DNA from: Schmidtea polychroa
Taxonomy: Eukaryota
Length of the DNA stretch: 43,183 nucleotides
Direction: 5' to 3'
NCBI GenBank assembly: GCA_044892525.1
Contig: CM097886.1
Coordinates: 147,270,818 to 147,314,000 of the forward strand
The position numbers were made by a program, and so were the translations under genes. The notes below the pieces were generated by a model, which searched no databases, was not told where the DNA came from, and saw only the letters and a list, made by a program, of their open reading frames with translations. Below, piece after piece: positions 1,883-37,089 of the stretch. Positions within the stretch are counted from its first letter, which is position 1, and each line of letters starts with the position of its first letter.

Positions 1883-4800
1883 ATGCCCATTTCTAAATCT
1901 AGAAATAAAATTATACAACTACAAGCAAATATTAATAATAATACCAGTTTACAACAAGAAATTTGTGATAAATCATTTTTGCTGAAAAATTTTGATGATA
2001 AAAAATTTTTTTTCAAACGAAAAGTTTTTATTGATGGTATTAATGGTTTGGAATTTACCAAACTTGAAAAAATGTTAATAAAACTTAAAGCTGTATGTTC
2101 TATTTAGATACTTATTCTATGTACTTGAAATCTTCTAGGAAGTTCTTGAGAGTTATGATGAAGCATTAGACTATGTGATAGTATCCAAGAATCAGTTGAC
2201 ATGTTTAAATTCGACAAATAAAATTAGTGAAATATCTAATAATAAATCTAATGGAAACTTATTAACTTTGGATTCTAAATTAACAAGATCTCGTCAAATT
2301 CAAAAGCTTTTAAATTCTTCAACTGGGAAAAACAATGACAAAGTAAGTTTAAGCAAAAATTATTAATTTTTATAATTAAAATCTGAGATAATGTTTCATA
2401 ATTCTTTTTTAATTTAGCCTCCTATTTCAAATAATCAATCTCATTTTATAACCCATCTTAGAAAAAACAATGTTCCAATTTTATGTGTTACAGGTAATTA
2501 ATTAAAATCGTCGTTCAAGCTTAATGGTAATTTCAATTCAGATGTCTGGAAATGGATTACAGCTCATTATGCCAAACTTATTCAGGTGATTTTTCAATCT
2601 ATTAAAATAATTATCAACTTTTTAATTTATATTTACTTATTTTTATTCATTTATAAAAATTTAATGAAACTGAAATTTTTAGTCAAATTTGATTGGTTTA
2701 CTACCGATGGATTTTATTTGGTTTACGTTTCACTGATTCGATTGGCTACTTTTATGAATAATATAATGCAAAATATTTGAATACAGGTAACCCTCCTACG
2801 ACGCGGTAAATAGGTTCCTAAAAATGCTGCGCTGTAGTGGCGTAACTAGTGGACACAGGACCCTGCGTTGCGGGGGCCACAAATTATTACTAAAAAATAT
2901 TTACAATCATTTTCTGAAACTTTTTTCCCGCAGTTATATTTGCCTACAAGCATAAAACTATCATTGAATAGCGGCTGCTGTGAATAACTATGTATTAAAC
3001 TTTAACCGAAAAATTTAAGTGGAAATATTTTACATTGCGCGGGGGGCCCAAATTTTGAAGTTCCGCCACTGCCTGCACTTCTGATTATAATACGAAAACC
3101 AAAAAAACAAATTTGCACTTCGTATATTTTACTGCACTTGTAAATCAATAATTTTTGATAATATATTGACCAGGTGTGCGGGAAACTAGATTTGCGAAAT
3201 CGAAGCACTGGTGCTATTTTAGGGGGAAGGGTGTACGTGCGATAACCCAAAGTTGTCCGTGGGGCTAATATCTACCTATTATTATTATTATTATTATTAT
3301 TATATTTATTATTATTATTATTATTATTATTTCATGTGACATTTCTACATACCGAGAGTATTTATTTGCATTTTTTATTATCTAATGTTTGCAAGTTATT
3401 TTTCTACACCTTTCTCAATTTATATATTAAATGAAGGCATCAAACGCAATATTATTCCATAGAAACCGGTGTATAAGTATAGTGCACCAATTTTTAATTT
3501 TAAACGAAAATTATTAAGAAATTTTTAAGATTATTGATTTAAGGGGCATTTACAAAAATCCATTTTTTTGTCTATTACAAAAATAGAACATTTTTTAAAA
3601 ACAACAACTGATAATAAACAAAACAATATGATTAAGATCCGTTTTTCTTGAGTTATAAAAACGGAGCTGGAATTCTTCTAATTCGTGATCTTCTGGCTAT
3701 AGGGGTAGGCAAATCCGATGATTCTAAATTAAGATTAGAAAGAGGTAAAATACTCCAAGAGTAAGAATCGTAATACACTTTTATAATATTTATAATATTC
3801 GGAAACATGTTCGATCTGATTTAAGTTGTGATTTCCAAAAATGGCACATATTCCAAGATCATAGCCAACTTTTTTTTACACTCAAATGTTTTATTGTTTA
3901 TATCCACCGTAAATCTATTGTCAACAAGAAATATATTGTTATTAGACTGCTCTACGGAAAGTAATGATCCTTGGGTCATATTTCTATTCAAAACATTAAG
4001 GCATTTATCAATAATTGGCGTTGGAAATCTTTTTTGTAATTTATTCAAAAAATATTCTATTTTGTAATTTATTTAAAAAATATTCTATTTTAGTAATTTT
4101 TCCTTAATTTAAAAGTGCAGGAAAATATTTGACATCACCTCAATTAATTAATATAGAGTTAATCATCGAAATATGTAAATTCGGTTTTAAAAATTAGTTA
4201 ATTTATAAAATAAATAATGTCTCACCCTTTTATGCATAAATCCGGCATATCTAAAATTCATAATAAATCATCAAATGATGAATGTTAAAATAATAGAAAG
4301 TTTTATTAATTATTAATTATTATTAAAATTTTATACAATATTTTTATTGGAATTTAATTTTCATTTTTTTCCAAAGAATGCAGAAATAGTAAAAGAAAAC
4401 AAAATCATCGATGCGGCTAAGGGGCTAAGAGTTATAAGTGGTCCGGGATTTAAAATTTATCACGAGCAGGGCATATATGCACCTATATATAAAACTAAGT
4501 CCAAGTATATGCCGAATTATTGGGAAGAAGAATGTTCGATTAGCCCTGATAAGAATTTAGCAATTGAAAAGACTATTGAACCAAGTCAAACTAAATTGCC
4601 GTCAGAAGTCACAAAGAAATTCCGAAATTCTAATAATTTGTTGAAGCCTTTGGGGGAAAATGTTAAGATTGAAAAAAAGAAAATCGAAGCCACTAAATTG
4701 TACTGTGAATGCTGTCGTGTTTCTTTTAAAGATACAGTCAGAGTAAGGCTTGCTAGAGAGTTTGTTGAGTTGAGTATTTTTTTATCATAGCATCTTCAAA

Positions 4801-7214
4801 CACCGAGTCATTTAAAATTTTCCGATGATCCTTTGAATTTTCAAGGATTTGGCGAAGATTTCAACATAAATTCACACTTGAAAGAGTTTTTATCCACTAG
4901 AATCAGAAAACAAAAAGCTATTGAAAGAATAGAAAGCAGAAAATTGATTAAAAAACTGTGAGTTTATTCTTTTATTTGCTTTTCATTCTACTCTCTTTTT
5001 TTTGTTAGGTCTGTTAACGATTTCAAAAACGAAATGACCAATCTTCCTAATCAGACTGTTTCTCAAACTATTGACGGACAATTGATAAATGATAATGAAT
5101 TAGAATTAGATGGAATTGAATCGATTGTGCAAGAAGTGAAAATCAATAGTGAAAATTTTTTAAATGGAATCGACATAATACATGAAGAAAATGAAAATAA
5201 GATGTCAGAAAAATTGACTAATGAGAATGAAGCAGTTTTGAAGATAAACGAGGGAGTCGAATCAGTTGGAAAAGAAGAAGAAATCGTTAAAATCGTCCTT
5301 GAAAGCAATGCAAATGAGATCGAGGTGATAAATAATGAAACTGAGAATGAAGCGTCAAAACAATTGATACAAGAGAGCGAAGCGGCTATAAAAATAAACG
5401 AGGAAGTCGAATCTATTGGAAAAGAAGAAAAAATCGTTAAAATCAACCTTGAAAGAAATGCATATGAGATCGAGCTGATAAATAATGAAACTGAAGCGTC
5501 AAAACAATTGATAGAAGACAACGAGGCCGTTTTACAAATGGATAATGGAGGCAAATTGATTGCAAAAGAAGAAAAAGTCGTTAAAATCGTCCTTGAAAGG
5601 AATGCTAATGAGATCGAGGTGATAAATAATGAAACTGAAAATAAAGTAACAGAAAAATTGACAGAAGAGAACGAAGCGGTTATAAATATAAACGAGGGAG
5701 TCGAATCTATTGGAAAAGAAGAAAAGATCGTTGAATTCACAAATGGTATTGAGGCGATAAATAATAATAAACGACAAACTAGAAATAATTCTGGGTGGAT
5801 AAGAATCTCCAATGAAAGTGTTACACCCATCTCGAAGAAGAGATCTAAATTATCACTGAAACTTCGTCGAAAGCCTCATGTCGTTACAGATAGTGAATTG
5901 CGATACGAATCTTGTGAAAATTTGAACCCGGTTAAAGCTTATTCTGCCGCAATAGAATCGAAAATCAAAAATGAATATTCTGTTTGTGAGTCAGCAGGCC
6001 CAATATGCCACCATTCAGCAGTTATTATTAATCATCAATATGCTCCAGAACCGAATGAATTACAGCCAATCGAAGTTGTGAAAGAAAACCGAACAATTTC
6101 TCGTGATGTTTCCTACAATGTCGTGGAATTCGATGAGAAATTTATCACTATCCACAACTTCTTCGTTCCATTGGACGTTTTGAGCATTGTTCTGGGTCAG
6201 TGTGACAAAATGACAATTCCAAATTTCATTGAGTTAAATCCCATTTCAGTTGTTAAGTTGTCCCGTGCTGCCCAGACAACCATCGTTCAATCGGAACTCT
6301 CAAATTTATCTCCCGAAATTTCCTATTTCCCAAAAGTATCCGAAGAAATTGCCTCGATAGAACTAAGCCATCACCCAGTAGCTGGAATAGCGAATGTTTC
6401 CACGGTTACTTGCTATAACAGCATTGAGTCTGTTGAAATCATCAAGATCCCAATCGATAATGAAATCGTGAATGATAAATTGAACAATTCTCTTGCCAGT
6501 TCAATCGATTTCCCGTCCACGTGTCGATACAATATCACCTTGCACTCGACTCCAGAAAGTGTTAAAACTCCGCTTTCCCCGATTGATACCAACTTGAACA
6601 AGATCGCATTTTCTCCGTTCATTTTGCGAATGGCCAAAAAATCCTGTGCAAAAAACGGTCGATGCAGTCCAGAATTTGACGTATCTCCGTTGCGTTACGG
6701 ACCGGTCGATAGTTCGTTTTTTCAATTCGATACCCATTCGACTCAGGAAACCATTTTGGATCCGATTTTGAATCTGAAACAAATGATAAATTCCGACCCG
6801 AAATTCGATGTTTTCTCATCTAATAATCGAAATATCAATTCCAAATTCAAACCGTATTTTTCAGTGGATTCGTTAGTGGAAAATCATTTCCTGGAAAAGT
6901 TCGACATTAATTTGAAATCGGACTCAGGAAAATTTATTGAAGTTGTATCCAAAAATAAGAAAAAGAAATCGAAAAAACCCAAAAAACGATCTCGACCCGG
7001 TAATGGATTCCATTCGTCATCATTCGGTGACGGTAATAGCAATTACGATAAAAGCATCGATACCACACCGAAACCGAAACGACAGCGTCTAAAGTCCTCA
7101 AAAATCTCAAATGACATCATATCAGAATCACCTTTATCAATTCGTCCGTTTCGACGTGCCAAATATATTGCGAGAGAATCGATTAATATTTCCACGAATC
7201 TCTATTTGAATTGA
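1883..7214 (+). CDS. DBF4: DBF4/ASK/Chiffon-like Cdc7 kinase regulatory subunit; exons 1883-2092, 2139-2342, 2418-2493, 2542-2585, 4377-4742, 4791-4957, 5009-7214 (3273 nt, 1090 aa)
   Basis: All six introns are GT-AG and phase-compatible (46, 75, 48, 1791, 48, 51 nt). Motif N/BRCT-like RKVFIDG...KLKAEVLESYDEALDYVIVSK; motif M GPGFKIYHEQGIYAPIYK...MPNY; after splicing, motif C zinc finger YCECCRVSFKDTVRHLQTPSHLKF with the C-x2-C-x9-H-x5-H spacing of DBF4. Confidence 0.85.
2835..3071. mobile_element. hAT-type MITE in DBF4 intron 4
   Basis: Ends TAGTGGCGTAACT / AGTTCCGCCACTG (11/13 inverted match), GGGGGCC subterminal motifs, flanks a degraded 6/8 TSD-like match. Confidence 0.6.
3277..3331. repeat. 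(ATT)n microsatellite
   Basis: Direct reading of the sequence. Confidence 0.95.
3821..4048 (-). pseudogene. Possible degraded MULE/SWIM transposase fragment
   Basis: FLVDNRFTVDINNKTFECKK followed by frameshifted YDLGIC resembles the SWIM lead-in (TVDL..TCxC..GIPC). Weak. Confidence 0.25.
5190..5765 (+). repeat. Four in-frame tandem repeats of about 50 codons inside the DBF4 tail
   Basis: Recurring peptide EAV(L/I)KINEGVES(I/V)GKEE(K/E)IVKI(V/N)LE(R/S)NA(N/Y)EIE(V/L)INNETE. Confidence 0.9.
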
Positions 7215-13044: not shown

Positions 13045-15150
13045 CTAAGTGAATTTCAGCATCAGATGTGCCAAGTTTTCATTAGAATAGACTCTGGCAA
13101 GTCTTGTAGGTTTGGAAGTGTCTTCACCAATTTGGCGCACCCAAATCTTATCGCTATGTTTCACATTTTTCTCTGTAGTTGCGATTTCATTTGAGTTCGT
13201 AACAGGTTCTACTGAAAGGTTTTCGTTCGACGTAGTTGAAATGGGTTCGACTGAAACTTTCTCTAAATCAGAGTGAAGTTTGTCTTCATCCACGTCATCA
13301 GAAATCATGAAAGCCGTTTTAAGTCCTCACAAATTTATATTTTGGATAACACCGTTGATAACGATGTGGCATTGTTATCCTTAATGTCGATCAATTTGTA
13401 AGGCCCCGAATATCTCGGTTTGAGACCTGAATCCGTAATATTACGAAGATAAACGTGAGTTGCGTCCTTGAAGGACTTTGGGACATACGGTGTATATGAG
13501 GAAGCATAAGAAAACTGTGGGTTGCTATCGATCGAAAGAAAATGATCTCTAGCCATATCTAATTCCTCAAAGGTAGGAGCGTTATCGAAATCAACTAATT
13601 CGTTAGGCAATGATGTTGAAGAAGTAACTGTGTCGGTGTAGTTCCGGTAGTCCTGGAAGGTGTGTTACTCCAACAAAGAAGAACAAAAGGTAAAGCTGTA
13701 GTCCAATTAAGTCTCGATGAAAGTATTCCAAGAGAAGTCTTCAAAGTTCGGTGAAATCTTTCGATCATGCCGTTTGTCTGAGGATGGTAAGCAGTTGAAC
13801 GTAGGTGTTGCATACCGAGCTTTTCAATTAGATGTTGAAATAACTGGGATTCAAACTGAGTTCCCCTGTCTGTGATTATTGATTTCGGAACACCGTATCT
13901 AGAAATCCAATGTTGCAAAATTGAATTTGCTACAATTTCAGCAGAAATGCTTTTTAAAGGAATAACCTCAAACCAACGCCTTTTCCGGTCAATCATGGTT
14001 AATAAGTAAGAAAAATCGCGATCAAAAGGCAAAGGACCGACCAGGTTGATGTGAAGAATTTCGAACCTATTTTCGGTCGGATAGTGAATCATCTGTGGCT
14101 TAGTGTGTCTAGAGATCTTGTGTTGTTGACAACCGATGCACTGGCTCACCCACAATTTAATATCGTGCCTCATTGCTGGCCAAACCACACGTGAATGTAA
14201 TAGATTGAAGGTAGCCGACGAGCCTGGATGATGTAAGTCGTGAATGGAGTGGAAAGCTAATTTCCGTAAGGAATTGTGCAAAATCGGTCTTAAAACACCT
14301 GATAAAGACGAGTCAAAGTGTACTCCGTCCACAATTTCAAGCTTATCGCCAAAAGCAGCTAGATCTTTTGCCGAAGGTGGATTGTCGCGGAGGCACTGTA
14401 CTGGAAATATTGTATCGTGCAATATAGCGTTGGTACTGCGGGAAAGACAGTCCGCAATAACGTTTTCTTTGCCGGCAATGTGGCGTATTTCGCAAGAAAA
14501 TTCAGTGATATTACTGATTTGCCTCTGTTGTCGTGGAGATGGGTCTTTCATTCCAAAAAGATAAGTTAGCGGTTTGTGGTCAGTGTAGATGATGTAGTGC
14601 TTGAAATGTTTGATTGAAAGATATATGCCTAAGAGTTCTCGGTCGAAAGCGGAATATTTCCGTTGTGCAAAAGAAAGTTTCTTTGAGAAAAACTCTAAGG
14701 GTTCGGAAAGGTCATTATGTAATTGGTGTAATACTGCACCAATAGCAACGTTTGATGCATTAGTAGTCAAACTCCAAGGTAAATCAGCATTGGGAAAATG
14801 AAGTGTTTAAATTTTCGAAAGTGCCGACTTAGCGTTTTCAAATGCACTCAGTGTGGTATCGCTCCATGATACTAGAGACTTTTTTGGTTTTGAGACAAGA
14901 CCTGATAGAGGTGACAAAATGTCAGAAACCCCTGGAATAAAACGATGACAATAGTTTATCGTTCCCAAAAAACTTCTCAGTTGTGAAACTGTTTTTGGAA
15001 GTGGGAATTTGGCTATAGTATCTAGTCTATCCGGGGGAAGTCGGATTCCATCTGCGGAAATTAAATGTAGAATTAAATGTAAAAGAAGGTACACTTATCG
15101 ACATTTACCTTAAGGTTGTTTTGTCGAAGTGCTGTTAAAGTGCTGTTAAA
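13045..15150 (-). mobile_element. Ty3/Gypsy pol remnant: end of RT, RNase H, integrase with GPY/F tail; frameshifted and 5' truncated
   Basis: RT thumb LRSFLGTINYCHRFIP; RNase H TTNASNVAIGAVL..YSAFDRELL..YTDHKPL; integrase HHCC (HDLHHPG...CIGCQQHK), HINLVGPLP, ITDRGTQFES, NGMIERFHRTLK; RYSGPY. First catalytic Asp of RNase H and integrase appear as Asn. Confidence 0.93.
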
Positions 15151-15990: not shown

Positions 15991-17223
15991 ATATACAAAG
16001 ATATGCTCACTTTTCGCTAGTACCCCTCAATGCAGTTCCAACGTTGATCACCCAACGGGTATGGAACGGTACAGCATTCTTGTATTCTGGATTACGCTGG
16101 AAACATCAAAAAAGGGACAAATGTGGTCTACCTGTATTATTATCGTATTTTCACTCGCAAACGGGTATCACCCACATCCTAGTATAATCCGCGAATTTTA
16201 ACCAAACCAGTAAAAAAGAATTGATATACGATAAGTTGAATTTGGGATAGTTTTTTAAGAAACCACAATAACCGTTGAAGTGAGAACACCGAATTCAGTA
16301 GACAGAGTTCCGCAAGATGAACCGACGAGAGACGAACAATTTCTGCTTAGATGTTGCTCGGAAAGCAATCATTTCTTCGAAAAGAGATGACGCTAGAAGA
16401 AATAAGAAAACGAAATTTGTTCATAGAATACTTCACGTCCGATTATAGAAGAATGATCCTACTATCAATTGCAATTATAAATTAAGACGTGAAAGTAGTG
16501 AAATATATCTATTTGACACCAAGGATGAGGATCCAGCATTATGTCTCTTTCCGTTTGGGATCAATTGAAGACCAATAAGCTGAGATGCGTGAAATCCATA
16601 AGCTCGTTGTGGGGAAGATATTAGTAGGGCAAGATTTGCATGCCGAATTACAATATTTGAAAATGTGGATAGGGAAGCTATATGGTATAAGAGACTTGGT
16701 GGCAACACCAATCTTCAAAAAAACTTAAAGTAACAAAAAAAGTGCAATGGTTTAAACTCCAAACGCTGATGAATGAAATATGTGGAGAAACAACACAAAC
16801 GGGATTTCATTCGGTCAAATAAGATGCGAAAAGCATTTAACGGATTTATAAAGAATTAGAAAATCAATGGGAAGATTACATAGTATGGCTGGTCAAAGGT
16901 ATTGCAAAAAAATGTCCATTAGCAGGATATAAATTAAAAAATCAAGCAACTACAAGTGAAATAGAATATGAGGACGATACATCAATGCAAATTGAGATAG
17001 CAATACAGTACCAAATGGAGATAGAATCCTCAAAATACATAATAGAAAAGAGCTTGGCGATATTGTTACCAGCAGAGAGCAGAATTAAAAGTGGAGCCAG
17101 AATTATTTCCGCTAATCAATTTCAATAATTACCAAATATATTAAATGTTGATATCTATATATCTGTTGAGGATACCTAAATAACAATTTATAAATAAATA
17201 AATAAAATTAGCTGGGGCAAGAT

Positions 17224-17599
17224 TGTCATGACAAACGGGACGATCTATGGGAACTCAAAAAAGAAAACGGAAGTAGAACGAAATGAGAAATGAGAAAGAG
17301 GAATGAAACAAAAGAAATTAAATAAAAAAGTTAAAACCAAGGTCAGTACTAATTAATTAGTGCAAAAAGGAAAAGGAATTTCTTATCTCGACAGCTTGTC
17401 AGTGATAACGGAATTGCTTGGAGAAGGCGGTTCAACAAAAAGGAAAAAGGGAAAATAGCTTGACAGTCGTCAGAGATAAAAATGAAACAGTCGGGGAAGG
17501 CAGGAGAAAGATAGTGGAAAAACACATAATAATAATAATGATAATACAATAAAGTGATAATTTAAGCCTTTTGTGCTGCGAATAATGTATTTTATGAAA
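17224..17599 (+). mobile_element. Putative 3' LTR preceded by a polypurine tract
   Basis: GGGGCAAGA tract, then TGTCATGAC start; purine-rich body, AATAAA at about 17548, degenerate inverted end TTTATGAAA. Confidence 0.4.
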
Positions 17600-29105: not shown

Positions 29106-29107
29106 CA

Positions 29108-29776
29108 TTGAATCTAAAGAGCTCTAAAAATAAATCTGAGGTATTTGCGATAATTCCAGTACAAAGAGAGAGATCAATAACCCCAACCCAAGACAAGTGG
29201 GAATCAGGAAATAGATTTAAGCGATCGAAAAGCCCATCACCCAAATGGAGGAACGATAATAATGTGAACAGAGCAAGCCAAAATTCACCAAGCACTGAGA
29301 GATCTAAAGCTATTCAATGTGATATTTGTAAGAAAATTGGTCATTATACAAACCAGTGTTGGTTTAAAAATAATTCTGAAAGAGTACCTAGGAGATTGAG
29401 TCCAGATTGGCAGAGAGATGATAGAGGAACAAATTTTCGGAGAACAATTCCTAATATGAAGTCAAATTTCAATGAGGTACAATGCTATCGCTGTAGTAGA
29501 AAAGGACATGTTTCTAGAAATTGTTTTTCAAGATCACCATCAACGTCACCATCACCACAGAGAGACAATGTGAATTTAAATGGGAAAATTCAATGTCATT
29601 TGTGCAGAAATTACGGGCATATTGCAAGATCCTGTCCCAGAAATTCTAACAAATTTCAAAGACCAATTTTGAAACGAACAATTAGATTTCAGGATGAAAA
29701 ACAATCAAACAATAACGTTGCTTATGTTCAGAAGATAAATTTAGAGAGAAAATTGAGAACGATGTTAATCAATTGA
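29108..29776 (+). pseudogene. Gag nucleocapsid-like region with three CCHC zinc knuckles
   Basis: CDICKKIGHYTNQC, CYRCSRKGHVSRNC, CHLCRNYGHIARSC separated by SP/R-rich linkers. Confidence 0.85.
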
Positions 29777-30159
29777 ATCAAAAATTGAATGAATTGATAG
29801 CAAAATTTGAATCAGAAGAAGAAACAGATGCTCATATTATGACGAGACGAAAATTGACAGATGAATCAAAACTTGATGATGTTGCTAGAAACATAGTTAA
29901 AACTGATATGCAAAGTGAAAAGAGTACAATACTTATTACTAAGGACAGAAAATTAGTAATAGAACCTGACGCAAACTCTCAGAAATTGACAGAAGTGTTA
30001 ATGAAGCTAACGATAATACTGTTGAGTTTAACAAAAATCAAAACTGTTATTAAACTTTGTATGGAATGTTATGCAGCAAGTGTGGGAAAGCGAGATCTAT
30101 TTGAAAATTATATGATAGAATTTGGCCAAACTCTACTAAAAATTAAATGGTTAGACCCA

Positions 30160-30375
30160 ATATTTATCAAAACAAATGATCAGACGGCACCAAATCCGAG
30201 TATCAAATTGAAGCATACGAAAAAGTGCATGAGCTAAAAAGAGAAATAATGCACAAATGTGAAGTTTGGGCAGTAGAACTTAGATTTATGGGCCGATTGT
30301 TGACAGACGACGAATTTTTGATACATTGTGGATTGATCCCCGGTGTTGAAAATTGAAATACAAGTAATGAGTATG
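30160..30375 (+). pseudogene. Frameshifted ubiquitin-like (UBL) domain
   Basis: Across two frameshifts: IFIKT..DGTKSEYQIEAYEKVHELKREIMHKCEVWAVELRFMGRLLTDDEFLIHCGLIPGVE/IEIQVM. This aligns with ubiquitin [44 protein letters not shown]. Confidence 0.65.
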
Positions 30376-30628
30376 ATTCCCAATGAGAAACCTGTCTAAT
30401 ATGATGTTGATAGAATTAAATTTGAATTAAATGAAGTATTGTTCAAAGGTGATATTATTGATAAATTAAATAATATTTTGAATTTAGAACTGGAATTGGA
30501 AGATAAATTAAAAATTTTAGATTATGTCAGACTTACAAAGATAAATATAGTGAAATGTTGAAAACTCTTTTTCGAAAATTTGGACAAGAATTTAGGAAGA
30601 AGGAATTTATATTGAGCCATTCATAATA

Positions 30629-31438
30629 ATGTTAACAATATATGATCAGGGAATCGAATGCACTAACGAGCATTGGTGTACAAAAGTAAGTAAAATACAA
30701 CGGAGAGCAGCAGAAAATTTGGGTAATGATGGAATAATTGTATTGACGTATAAAGGTTTTGAGTTAGATGATGACGAGTATTTATTTGATTGTGACTGTA
30801 TACCACGAAAGCTCGATGAAAATGGATTTTTGACGAATGAGGAACCGTCTCAAATGTGTATTAATGAAATAGTTGCGATGAAACAATTTGAATTAAAGGA
30901 AGTAGAAGAAAGTTTTAAAATGGAATTACCAAATTGGAAAAATGAGATAATGAGTGATGATGAGGAGATGCACGATGAACAAGAAATGAGAAGAGATGAC
31001 ATAGAAAATGAAACTGAAGAGATTATTGTTAAAAATGAGATAAAAATTGAAGTTAAAAATGAGGCATATATAACAGAGATGACGACTAATAATGAGATTA
31101 AGGAAAAACAATGCAGGAATTTGTATAAAATGAGATGTAAAATAATAAAAAGATTCCATGAGGAGAGAGATCAAAATAACTCAGAGAAAACTGAGAAAGT
31201 GTTACGTGCTCTAGTAAATGAATTATATGGTGAATCAACAGAGAAATTACAAGTAGAGAAATATGTGAGAAAAATCGCAAAGAAAATTAAAAAGAGATTT
31301 TGTGTATCGTTGAAACAGAAAAAAGAAAGTATGGAGTTTTGCGAAGATAGTGTGATAACTGAGCTGATGACTAGAGAAATGGATAGAAATATAGTATTAA
31401 CAAGTATGAGTTATATTTTGTTAGAAATCGGAACATGA
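30629..31438 (+). CDS. Acidic/charged unknown ORF with a possible second UBL-like motif at its N-terminus
   Basis: 269-aa open frame; KVSKIQRRAAENLGNDGIIVLTYKGFELDDDEYLFDC resembles the L.F.G..L.D...L.DY motif of ubiquitin folds. Confidence 0.4.
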   Translation: MLTIYDQGIECTNEHWCTKVSKIQRRAAENLGNDGIIVLTYKGFELDDDEYLFDCDCIPRKLDENGFLTNEEPSQMCINEIVAMKQFELKEVEESFKMELPNWKNEIMSDDEEMHDEQEMRRDDIENETEEIIVKNEIKIEVKNEAYITEMTTNNEIKEKQCRNLYKMRCKIIKRFHEERDQNNSEKTEKVLRALVNELYGESTEKLQVEKYVRKIAKKIKKRFCVSLKQKKESMEFCEDSVITELMTREMDRNIVLTSMSYILLEIGT

Positions 31439-32349
31439 TTGCTCAGATATGGAAAAACAAGAGGAAATAATTAAAACGGCAAGCAGAGTTTTACATAAAC
31501 ATGTGGGCACATGGATAAAAAGAGAATGGAGGTTGGGAGAAGCTGAGTAAACAAAAAATTGAACCAGTTGTAAAAATGAGCGAAAACTATGATGGGGCAT
31601 TAAAAAGAAAACCCGTAAAATTACCGTTTTTAATGTTTATGATCTTAATATTTTATGCAATTTCCAACTAAAACCTCTTCGTTAATTGCATATGATTGCA
31701 CTCAAACAAAGATTGGAGAAATTTATTCGATAATGTATTAAAGAATTAGCAATTAGCGACAAAATTAAAGACAATTCAAAAAATGTATAATTTCATACAT
31801 GTTAATCTTTGGACAAAATAGTGGAGAAATGTTGTCATAATCGAACCGATGATGAAGAAATTTATATGTATTGGACAGTCAAAGAACAGCAGAAAATTAA
31901 AATAATTTTCCAAAAAACCATGTAATTGAGATATTGAGTAAAGGAAAATTTTTTGTCAAAAATGGGAATCTACAGAAACCTCTTCATGGTTATGAAACCT
32001 GTACGAACAATGAATGGTCAAAATTAGAATCTCAAGATGAAACAAAATACCTTAATAACAAAACAAATCACGTTCAAATGCAGATTTGTAGTTGTTTCGA
32101 CCAGTCAGAGGGGGAATGTCACTCACCTCTGACTGGCAGTTTGTTGGATGCTTCTTTTGTTTCGCGTCTGTGTGCGCGGTCTGATTTGTTCGAATATTGT
32201 TGGTGTGCGCACAGACGCGAGAAGTAGGTTTGATTTTCGTTGTTTCTGGTGAAATTTTAGAATTATTGTTTTTTTGTAGAAACTATATTTAATTTTGTGG
32301 TTTTGTTTTACTGGTAAATTTTCGAATTCTGGAATTGTGGATTTTTTAA

Positions 32350-33393
<1,044 letters not shown>

Positions 33394-34593
33394 TAAAATT
33401 ACTATTTAGCAATTTGATGGAGGATGATCAGATGTTAAAGGTCAACTATCATAGAAGATGCCAAAGGTCAATTAATTATTGCCAACGTCCGGTTTCAAAT
33501 AACAGATTATTATAATTCCAAAGAATTCCAGAACGATTCCAGAAATTTCCGACAATTCAAACAATTCTACCCAGATAAACAAATTCACAAAATCAATATA
33601 GTTTCTACAAATAATTTCATAAATTCATAAAAGACAACGAAATCAAACCCATTGCTCGCGTCTGTGTGTGCACACCCATTTACCATAATTCGGCACACAG
33701 ACGCGAGAATATTCAACCAACAGACTAATCAACAGCCAGTCAGAGGTGAGTGACATTCCCCCTCTGACTGGTCGAAACAGTAGTAATGAAATAACTGTAT
33801 TTTACAAGACAAAGGTCGGAAAAAGGGTAAATGTTTTTATAAATGATAAAATTCAGGTAGTGTTGGACGAACATCGTCAACAAGCAAAAGGTAGCCTTCA
33901 AAATTCAAAACCGAAAGCAACATCAAATGAATTTATGACGAGAATTATGCATTGCAAGCGAAAAACCAACGCTGACCGGTGGCATATCGTGTTCATCGAA
34001 AATAGACATATTAATCTTCATAATAATAAATTCTTTGAGAAAATAACTATTAATCAAAAATTGAAGTTATTATTGACATTCTTATGTATAAAAAACAACA
34101 GTCTATCATTACACTATAAAGAGAATCTATTTATTAGCAATTGTGTTAAAATATCGTTCAGATTTGTAATTATGGCCATTCCAAGTGACATTCTACTCTT
34201 TGACATTGTGATCAATATAGCCATTGAAAAGGAGAACAATCATATATGACTTTCAGTATTCGGATCCGCGGAGATCAATGTGGTTAGAGACATGGGTGTA
34301 GTAAGATATGATTTCATTGCATGATATTGATATTGTAGAGTATTTCTTTATATTATATCTTTTATGATTATGCTCAAAATGACTAATAATAATCTTGTTA
34401 TGTGACTAATCGTGTTATCCTTTCTGTGAATAAACGGGTTGAGCGGTTACATTGCTGATGGGGAAATTGGGATATAAAAGTATGGTTGTTTTCAGATGAT
34501 TTAACAAAATTTTAACAGAAGATAACTAGAAAAGGAAATTCAAATGGGAAAAATCTAAAATTTCATTACTAGTTAAAATTCCATCTTCTAGAG

Positions 34594-37089
34594 CATAGGT
34601 TCCCAACCTGTGGTACGCGTACCACTAGTGGTACGAATTGATAATTTTGGTGGTACGCCAAGAGTTTTGTACTTTTAAAAAACTTATATTTTATGCTAAG
34701 ATAACAAAAAAATTAATCAAGCTATAAATTCGTATATTCTTCTGATAGAACGATACCCAACATATTCAGAAAAATATGCGTAGTTAAAAGAAAAATATTT
34801 TTAGTACTAACACGTTCGAACAAATCCAGAAATATACTATTAGGTTTAGTTTTTATTTTAATTTACAAAGCAAGCTGGGGTGTGATAAATTTGTATCCAT
34901 CTTATTAAGAAATAGTCCATAAGTAAATTATTATTTTTTAGATTTTTCAAAAAGAAAAAAATATTTCTATCAGGATTCGAACCAGCCCCCGAAGTTAAGG
35001 TCTTACCAAATTTTTTTACCCATTGATAATGAAAAATTTTGCCGATAACAATGAAAATTTAAGTTCATATAGCGAAGAAGAGGAAATCTTTGAAAAGACA
35101 AATTGTGTGCAGAAAAAAAAGCATAAAAAGAAAGAGAAAGTAGCCAGGCTCTATAATCCAGAATACTTAAGCTATGTATTTTCAATTAAATCTGGCTCAG
35201 AGTCTTCCGATTCCGCAGTGTGTTATCTGTTTCGAAACTTTATCAAATGGATGCATGAAACCATCACTTTTAAAAAGACATTTCTCAACTAAGCATCCGG
35301 AACTAAAAGATAGGCCTTCGGAATATTTTCAAAGGAGGGTTGCGGAACTGGGCCTTCAAAAAGCTTTTATGACATCTTTCAGCAATTTAAACACAAATTA
35401 TGTTCGGGCTTCATATTTAGCGAGCTTACATATAGCAAAATGTGGAAAGGCACATACAATTGGTGAAACTTTATTGCTGCCTGTTGCTAAAGATATCGTA
35501 AGATCAGTATTTGGCGAAAATTCAGCGAAGGAAATCGAAAAAATCTCATTGTCGAACAACACGGTAAAGTCACGAATAGACGATATGGCAAATCAGATAG
35601 AAAAAATTTTAGTCTGCAGATTAAAAGACTGTTGGTTTTTTTCTTTGTAGCTTGACGAAAGTACCGACGTTTCAAATTTGGCTCAATTACTTGTCTATGT
35701 TCGATTTGATTTTATGAACGAAATACACGAAGAAATGCTTTTTTGTAAACCTTTGAAAATGAGAACAACATCTAATGAAATTTTTAACATACTTACTGGT
35801 TACTTTGCTGAAAATGAAATAGACTGGAATAAATGTGTAGGGATTTGCACAGATGGTGCTCGAGCCATGATTGGAAGCTTATCTGGGGTAGTTACAAGAA
35901 TTAAAGAAGTTGCTCCGTTATGTATTTCTATGCATTGTATAATTCATCGTGCATCTTTGGCGGCAAAAAATATGCCCGATCCCTTGATAACAGTTCTAAA
36001 CGAAGCCGTAAAAACGATAAATTTCATAAAGTCTCGAGCACTTAATTCCCGATTATTTTCAATTCTATGCAGTGAGATGGGAAGTGACCATACCACGCTG
36101 TTGCTGCATACTGAAGTCCGGTGGCTTTCAAGAGGAAAAGTTTTAAGTCGACTATTTGAATTGCGAAATGAGGTAAAAATCTTTCTTAAAACTTCCCAAG
36201 AGCGAAACGATATTAATTTTACAAATGAAATTTGGTTGTCTAGGCTTGCATACTTATCAGATATTTTTGCTAGGCTGAATGAATTAAATTTAAGCTTACA
36301 AGGCGCAAACAATTCGGTGTTTGATCTCAGCGACAAGATATTAGCATTTAAGAGAAAATTAAGATTAATATTGCAACAGATTGAAAAAGGAGATATTTCA
36401 ATACTTTTTTCTTTAAGCGCCTTTGTTGATGAAAACAAAATTTCTGTTTCTGAGCAAGTATTGGCCGATATTAATCAACATATCATATCCATGTTACAAT
36501 CCTTTGAAAAGTATTTCCCGGAAAACGTTATTTCTCAAAATTGGATTCGAAATCCCTTCGCATTCCAATTTGATATCCCAGATAATGTTAATGATAAGGA
36601 ATCTTTTATTGATCTAATTAGCGATGGCAATTTAAAAATTAAATTCAATAACTCTAATTTGTGCTCATTTTGGCTTTCCATTCGTAAAGAATATCCTGAA
36701 TTATCAAGTCAAGCTATTAAATTTTTAATGACATTTAGTACTACGTATTTGTGTGAAACTGGATTTTCAACCATGTCAGCGATAAAAAATAAATACAGAT
36801 CATTGCTTAGTATAGAATCTGATCTTCGTCTCAAATTGTCGAAAATTTCACCAGATATTTCCATGTTAGTTAGGAATAAACAAGCTCAACCATCTCACTA
36901 AATAAAATAAAAATATTATGAGCAAAAAATTTTTTGTTTTTTTGTTTGATTTTTTTTCTTAACCACAAAAGAAATTTTTTATATATAAAATGCTACATTT
37001 AAAATAAGCCCCCCAAATTTTTTACGTGGTACTCAAAAATTATTTTTATTTTTAGTGGTACGAAACCCAAAAAAGGTTGGGAACCGCTG
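34594..37089 (+). mobile_element. Full-length hAT (Buster/Charlie-type) transposon
   Basis: TIRs CATAGGTTCCCAACCT / AGGTTGGGAACCGCTG, perfect 8-bp TSD TTCTAGAG (34586-34593, 37090-37097) with central TA, GTGGTAC subterminal repeats. Confidence 0.95.
35023..36901 (+). pseudogene. Buster-type hAT transposase (ZBED5/ZBED8/SCAND3-like) with a frameshift and one premature stop
   Basis: RLYNPEYLSY, PQCVICFETLSNGCMKPSLLKRHF..KH, FSL*LDESTD (TAG 35648-35650), CTDGARAM, HCIIHR, HTEVRWLSRG, FSTTYLCETGFS, QAQPSH. Confidence 0.93.

Follow-up and report, generated by a model that had tools for sequence, protein, structure and literature searches.

Why should the Gag protein of a retroelement run on into domains that resemble ubiquitin? 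The question is raised by a 43,183-nucleotide stretch of the Schmidtea polychroa genome (GenBank assembly GCA_044892525.1, contig CM097886.1, positions 147,270,818 to 147,314,000 of the forward strand), the whole of which is called the window here. At its positions 29108 to 31620 a preliminary description, made from the letters alone, had read a gag with three zinc knuckles that continues into ubiquitin-like (UBL) domains. We find that this feature is real and that the copy carrying it is a dead member of a compact family of long terminal repeat (LTR) elements of the Burro type, a layout that has already been published. We consider it likely that Gag runs in frame into a first UBL domain (UBL1), a helical domain, a second UBL domain (UBL2) and a Bcl-2-like domain, and that the UBLs are integral domains, which would offer proteins of the host ubiquitin system a surface to dock on and would not be cut sites.

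Gag and two ubiquitin-like domains in one broken reading frame

Alignment to sister copies bears out the earlier proposal that gag and the open reading frames after it are one polyprotein broken by frameshifts: downstream of gag there is a single reading frame, interrupted near 29733, 30177, 30353, 30532, 30595, 31434, 31517 and beyond, and also by stops. The three CCHC zinc knuckles are present (Pfam zf-CCHC, E 1.4e-8 on the gag fragment; Table 1), and the frame said to be open back to about 29720 is open from 29716 to 30237, with the peptide quoted at the time inside it. The linker that follows has a weak Matrilin coiled-coil match (E 0.01). The UBL placed at 30160-30375 was found again in pieces across the frame breaks, with nearly the same limits, and a second one suspected at about 30650-30800 is likewise a real domain by its predicted beta-grasp, although its limits are wider. 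The acidic region described after the UBLs exists, but the Bcl-2-like domain and the hydrophobic segment beyond it had been overlooked.

UBL1 can be recognized with the Pfam ubiquitin profile, which its fragment at 30180-30353 matches at E 0.0013 (18.9 bits, under the cut-off of 25.4); one sister copy passes this cut-off (26.7 bits, E 4.8e-6) and another falls below it (22.7 bits). The profile search that the preliminary description had proposed thus matched UBL1, above the cut-off in a sister copy only, and gave no match for UBL2. Alignment of UBL1 with ubiquitin reached z 5.4, whereas that of UBL2 did not rise above shuffles (z 0.7), and the two UBLs aligned with one another at z 7.2 (500 shuffles), closer to each other than either is to ubiquitin, to which identity is at most 29%. 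Structure prediction, also proposed then, gave both UBLs of a sister copy a beta-grasp with the order beta-beta-alpha-beta-beta-(alpha)-beta, and the predicted structures match all ubiquitin-like families equally. On these models, UBL1 and UBL2 are two real ubiquitin-like folds. With the UBL region as query, a word-index search of proteins of 858-2,732 amino acids gave 1,154 candidates, none of them at E <= 0.001, and a full HMMER search found 7 distant relatives. The best single-sequence PDB matches of UBL1 were the UBLs of Rad23 and ubiquilin, which were not significant (E 0.03-0.14). For the helical domain with UBL2 (helix-UBL2), the best PDB match of a profile was to an unrelated ribosome protein (E 0.019), and the top ESM Atlas score was 0.80, under the 0.9 bar, with ubiquitin-family clusters among the leads.

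The region after the acidic spacer, searched as a profile against the PDB, matched Bcl-2 or Bcl-xL in all 60 rows shown (best E 0.003), and Pfam Bcl-2 matched sister copies at E 0.005-0.013, below its cut-off. No NWGR-type BH1 was seen in this domain, whose assignment is one of sequence and not of fold. The hydrophobic segment that follows is likely a membrane anchor together with the Env signal sequence. In long copies, a fusion glycoprotein (Env; PF24664, Monjiviricetes_fusion, E 1e-60 to 1e-93) lies between Bcl-2 and the protease, so that the UBLs are not simply placed between nucleocapsid and protease, as had been thought: the Bcl-2-like domain and Env intervene there, and the window copy has lost its protease, reverse transcriptase (RT), RNase H and integrase by deletion.

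A multi-copy family with a deleted subfamily

A DNA search for the family of the window copy (family A) gave 642 candidates and, among them, 45 scored matches, those of full length being 84-87% identical; two sister families (B and C) and a fourth family (D) were also compared, their kinship being expressed as pairwise identities. Locus counts refer to the 30 best family loci. The knuckle region adjoins the UBLs in 27 of them, so the linkage for which the preliminary description had asked other genomic copies to be collected holds; knuckles, UBL1 and UBL2 share a single open frame in 10 by a strict motif test that misses motif variants. What follows the UBL cassette is a deletion junction at 16 loci, env at nine, and neither within the flank fetched at five.

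Long copies span about 20 kb and encode, in order, Gag, three CCHC knuckles, UBL1, the helical domain, UBL2, an acidic spacer, the Bcl-2-like domain, a hydrophobic segment, the fusion glycoprotein, protease, RT, RNase H and integrase, the last four in the order expected of Ty3/gypsy elements. The two sister families have an identical domain order, with cassette identity of 38-43%, frames of up to 3,437 amino acids and a membrane-anchored domain after the integrase. LTR pairs are present in sister copies, and in both copies read (2/2) they came with TG...CA ends, a primer-binding site (PBS) starting with TGG, a purine tract and a 4-bp duplication. Judged from these sequences, the elements form a Ty3/gypsy LTR family with many copies, which is kin to planarian Burro and to GAG-ENV-POL errantiviruses.

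Deleted copies are 9-10 kb long, and the window copy is of their type, its Env signal segment being followed directly by the post-integrase domain. The deleted subfamily was recently mobile, because LTR pairs are 99.6-100% identical in the four deleted-type copies examined (4/4). The window copy, at 86% identity, is older than such copies and is a decayed, dead, 5'-truncated member of this subfamily. Neither a 5' LTR nor a capsid domain is left in it, no 3' LTR follows 34330 within the window, and no PBS, polypurine tract, LTR pair or target duplication is present around it. About 400 nucleotides at 17164-17533 (+), 11.5 kb upstream of the gag fragment, are 79-83% identical to the start of the family LTR; this piece was considered as part of the copy and could not be tied to it. 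When a sister copy was divided into 30 bins, the contigs of four sequencing runs, whose RNA origin is a guess, covered 30, 14, 16 and 16 of them; they are uninformative for the window locus.

Three further observations concern the families. The post-integrase domain of the deleted subfamily (L007, L010, L113, L114; window 31750-34309) is 45-50% identical to that of long copies, with the gag half at about 95%, which may reflect either recombination with another family or fast evolution. Family D (L130:3-8000) has four knuckles, a single helix-UBL module and an RT 52% identical. One family B copy ends at its 3' side with a separate 443-amino-acid open reading frame (L056:7601-8929), which matches only DUF7881_N in Pfam (E 0.01) and by its motif resembles a DEDDh exonuclease.

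The UBL cassette diverges fast under purifying selection

The ratio of nonsynonymous to synonymous substitution rates (dN/dS) of the cassette is 0.15-0.29 between two family B subfamilies, 0.28 between families A and B, which is near saturation, and 0.41 within family A (16 of the 30 loci, chosen for being free of stops). These ratios show purifying selection on the cassette. The cassette nevertheless diverges much faster than capsid or RT: identities of A to B and of A to C are 76 and 72% for capsid and 91 and 88% for RT, compared with 38 and 48% for UBL1, 42 and 28% for the helical domain, 58 and 62% for UBL2, and 29 and 40% for Bcl-2. Accessory domains that face the host tend to diverge fast.

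The helical domain is accompanied by a single UBL in family D and in two distant proteins, P0007 and P0009; P0004 has both UBLs. A separate giant family of Burro layout in this genome (frames of about 4,790 amino acids with MATH and ankyrin, RT 52% identical to family A) carries a homologous helix-UBL after MATH (hhalign probability 70%, E 4e-5, 102 columns). Helix-UBL2 may be the unit that worked first in evolution, with UBL1 arising from it by a later duplication. It is common to compact and giant elements, even young copies that have lost env and pol retain it, and, as a small foldable domain, it is suited to a search for partners.

Possible roles of the ubiquitin-like domains

In the reading of the UBLs as docking sites for host ubiquitin-system proteins, the hydrophobic segment after Bcl-2 would anchor this half of the polyprotein in a membrane, so that Gag, the UBLs and Bcl-2 face the cytosol and Env the lumen. 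Whether still joined to Gag or freed by the element's own protease, the cassette could adjust host protein turnover and survival in the cells that make particles, and the deleted subfamily without env and pol would rely on full-length elements in trans. Several points weigh against this reading. The docking step is an inference, and the cleavage sites of the protease were not located. Sequence comparison does not recognize UBL2 as ubiquitin, with no Pfam match in the window, and the assignment of Bcl-2 comes from sub-threshold matches centred on BH2. For the deleted lineage, the pN/pS of 0.42 comes from one pair of a long and a deleted copy and does not establish selection within that lineage alone. 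The position equivalent to Ile44 of ubiquitin is Lys or Arg in UBL1 of all 15 aligned copies, and this speaks against UBL1 binding the ordinary receptors of ubiquitin, whereas UBL2 has Thr, Val or Met there (the patch was scored at Ile44 only); therefore UBL2 is the better candidate for such receptors.

A different role, which we regard as unlikely, is proteasome targeting: UBL2 or both UBLs would dock, as those of Rad23, ubiquilin and midnolin do, on the 19S particle, to have bound host restriction factors degraded or to time Gag turnover. Shuttles of the Rad23 and ubiquilin type have an integral UBL without Gly-Gly, as here, their UBLs are the top PDB matches of UBL1, and UBL2 keeps Thr, Val or Met at the Ile44 position. 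However, those PDB matches are not significant and the fold matches are tied across ubiquitin-like families, UBL1 has its basic residue at the Ile44 position, and no domain for binding substrates, such as a UBA, came to light.

The helical domain gives rise to another idea, on which we would place little weight. If it were a TFIIS N-terminal domain (TND/LW, LEDGF-IBD-like), helix-UBL might hold transcription elongation factors to Gag or to the pre-integration complex, or act as a decoy for them. In a fuller and equally doubtful version, the domain would have been captured and, with the UBL, would tether Gag or the integration complex to the host transcription machinery, while the non-autonomous subfamily would keep the cassette and Bcl-2 fused in frame to a second surface protein that replaces Env. 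LEDGF guides lentiviral integration through its TFIIS-N-like domain (IBD); on the TFIIS-like reading, the retroelement would have its own version of that domain. The TFIIS N-terminal domain did rank first among matches to the predicted fold, but tied with HEAT/ARM folds, and sequence tests against the TFIIS-N profile (PF08711) were negative; this identity is a lead only. The ESM Atlas returned no usable match for the helical domain of P0007, and a literature search had none naming a TFIIS N-terminal domain among the matches listed. In the host genome, PF08711 occurs in more than a dozen near-identical loci with open frames of 340-520 amino acids (L092-L102), mostly clustered on contig C2, which we presume to be IWS1-like.

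It is quite improbable that the UBLs are a built-in ubiquitin mimic that recruits the endosomal sorting machinery ESCRT for budding in place of a late domain. UBL1 lies a little C-terminal of the nucleocapsid in an enveloped element, and ubiquitin fused to Gag without Gly-Gly drives budding in the experiments excerpted from PMC2958808. The same excerpts report that this rescue requires Leu8 and Ile44, and UBL1 has no Ile44 equivalent. Long elements, moreover, already carry PTAP and YPx(3-4)L motifs. These adjoin each other after the membrane anchor of Env and before the protease (for example L014:4890-9998, P0003 651-661; also L055, L061, L063, L066 and L067); PTAP occurs in 4/4 family A and B frames and in family D, and YPxnL in 6/6 frames of families A, B and C, which suggests ESCRT-dependent budding from motifs that sit elsewhere. 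A mimic role is weakened both by this and by the need for Leu8 and Ile44.

The preliminary suggestion of cleavage signals for host deubiquitinases, for which pestiviruses offer an analogy, has next to no probability: cytopathogenic pestivirus ubiquitin insertions share the ubiquitin fold inside a viral polyprotein and depend on Gly-Gly cleavage, whereas neither UBL ends in Gly-Gly in any of 15 aligned copies or 7 distant relatives, so that host deubiquitinases would not cut there (the idea is refuted for Gly-Gly-specific enzymes), the element has its own aspartic protease, and the one true Gly-Gly ubiquitin nearby (33076-33303) belongs to an unrelated nested insertion. The role of host-like cargo in these very abundant elements is narrowed accordingly.

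Comparison with known elements

The preliminary description knew of no retroelement family with such UBLs. However, Arkhipova and Yushenova 2019 (PMC6431247) describe the planarian giant gypsy-like LTR elements Burro and GYPSM1 as single polyproteins, with three CCHC knuckles in Gag, a Ubi2/SUMO-like motif that follows MATH and precedes BCL-2, and an in-frame env that separates gag from pol. Our family shares the Ubi2/SUMO-like domain followed by a BCL-2-like one (under the Pfam cut-off) before env, and an in-frame env of gB type flanked by gag and pol, as in the Burro-type/GAG-ENV-POL clade. It is not Burro1 or GYPSM1 proper, with a size of about 20 kb versus over 30 kb and no MATH, BIR or ankyrin match in the frames scanned. 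Its frames reach 2,828 amino acids (two copies read end inside the integrase) and those of the sister families 3,361-3,437, against 4,873-5,140 for Burro/GYPSM1; its LTRs are about 0.9-1 kb long; and it has two UBLs around a helical domain where that paper names one motif. Since the region after MATH in the giant element of this genome is homologous to helix-UBL2, the published motif is probably UBL2.

The GAG-ENV-POL order and HSV/gB-type Env also characterize Smed_errantivirus_1 and _2 (Chary and Hayashi 2026, PMC13524379, as excerpted). Over a 156-residue stretch of Env, 118 residues by eye are identical to the former and 113 to the latter (72-76%). That paper's main text and supplements mention neither ubiquitin nor Bcl, and the excerpts show no env/pol-deleted derivative such as that of our family. 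Beyond PMC6431247 we found no UBL domains in retroelement Gag in the literature, but Grohme 2018 or Repbase may already record two UBLs; passages of PMC11410931, PMC13238120 and PMC8532177 added no domain detail.

Among integral (type II) UBLs such as those of Rad23, ubiquilin and BAG1, or the tandem ones of ISG15, OASL and FAT10, those described here differ in their low identity to ubiquitin and altered Ile44 patch. The tandem UBLs also stand head to tail, whereas a four-helix domain separates these two.

Features of the window

Table 1. Parts of the retroelement copy and of the insertion within it, in window coordinates.
Feature	Position	Strand	Remark
3' portion of gag, including the three CCHC zinc knuckles	29107..29776	+	Pfam zf-CCHC
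CCHC knuckles	29318-29359, 29483-29524, 29594-29635	+	
Coiled-coil-like linker, nucleocapsid to UBL1	29716..30153	+	next frame after break near 29733
UBL1, ubiquitin-like domain	30154..30380 (end approximate)	+	breaks near 30177 and 30353
Four-helix domain between UBL1 and UBL2	30400..30599	+	breaks near 30532 and 30595; HEAT-like fold
UBL2, more conserved ubiquitin-like domain	30605..30880	+	
Acidic low-complexity spacer	30881..31099	+	read from sequence
Bcl-2-like domain, BH2-type W-x-x-x-N-G-G-W motif	31100..31551	+	breaks near 31434 and 31517
Hydrophobic segment and first Env residues	31609..31731	+	up to internal deletion junction
First part of post-integrase membrane-protein domain	31750..32092	+	joined behind Env signal segment
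Nested insertion	32093..33779	+	separate, not part of Gag-UBL element
Remainder of post-integrase membrane-protein domain	33780..34330	+	similarity to sister copies stops at end

The nested insertion (1.7 kb) has TG...CA ends, a 49-nucleotide terminal inverted repeat and a 5-bp target duplication. Its open reading frame at 32350-33396 encodes a proteasome alpha-subunit fragment (Pfam E 3.5e-24) fused to the near-canonical ubiquitin, which ends in LRGG. There are 89 scored genome matches, and sister loci run into a second ubiquitin-like unit. A DNA transposon was considered and dropped for an LTR-type insert, given paired direct copies.

Elsewhere in the window, an open frame of 750 amino acids that is internally repetitive and has no Pfam match lies at 4962-7214 (+). 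An unrelated gypsy element has left an RNase H-integrase fragment at 13045-15094 (-), which is 29% identical to the pol of family A. A broken hAT-type transposase with weak zinc-finger and hAT dimerisation matches occupies 35171-36901 (+).
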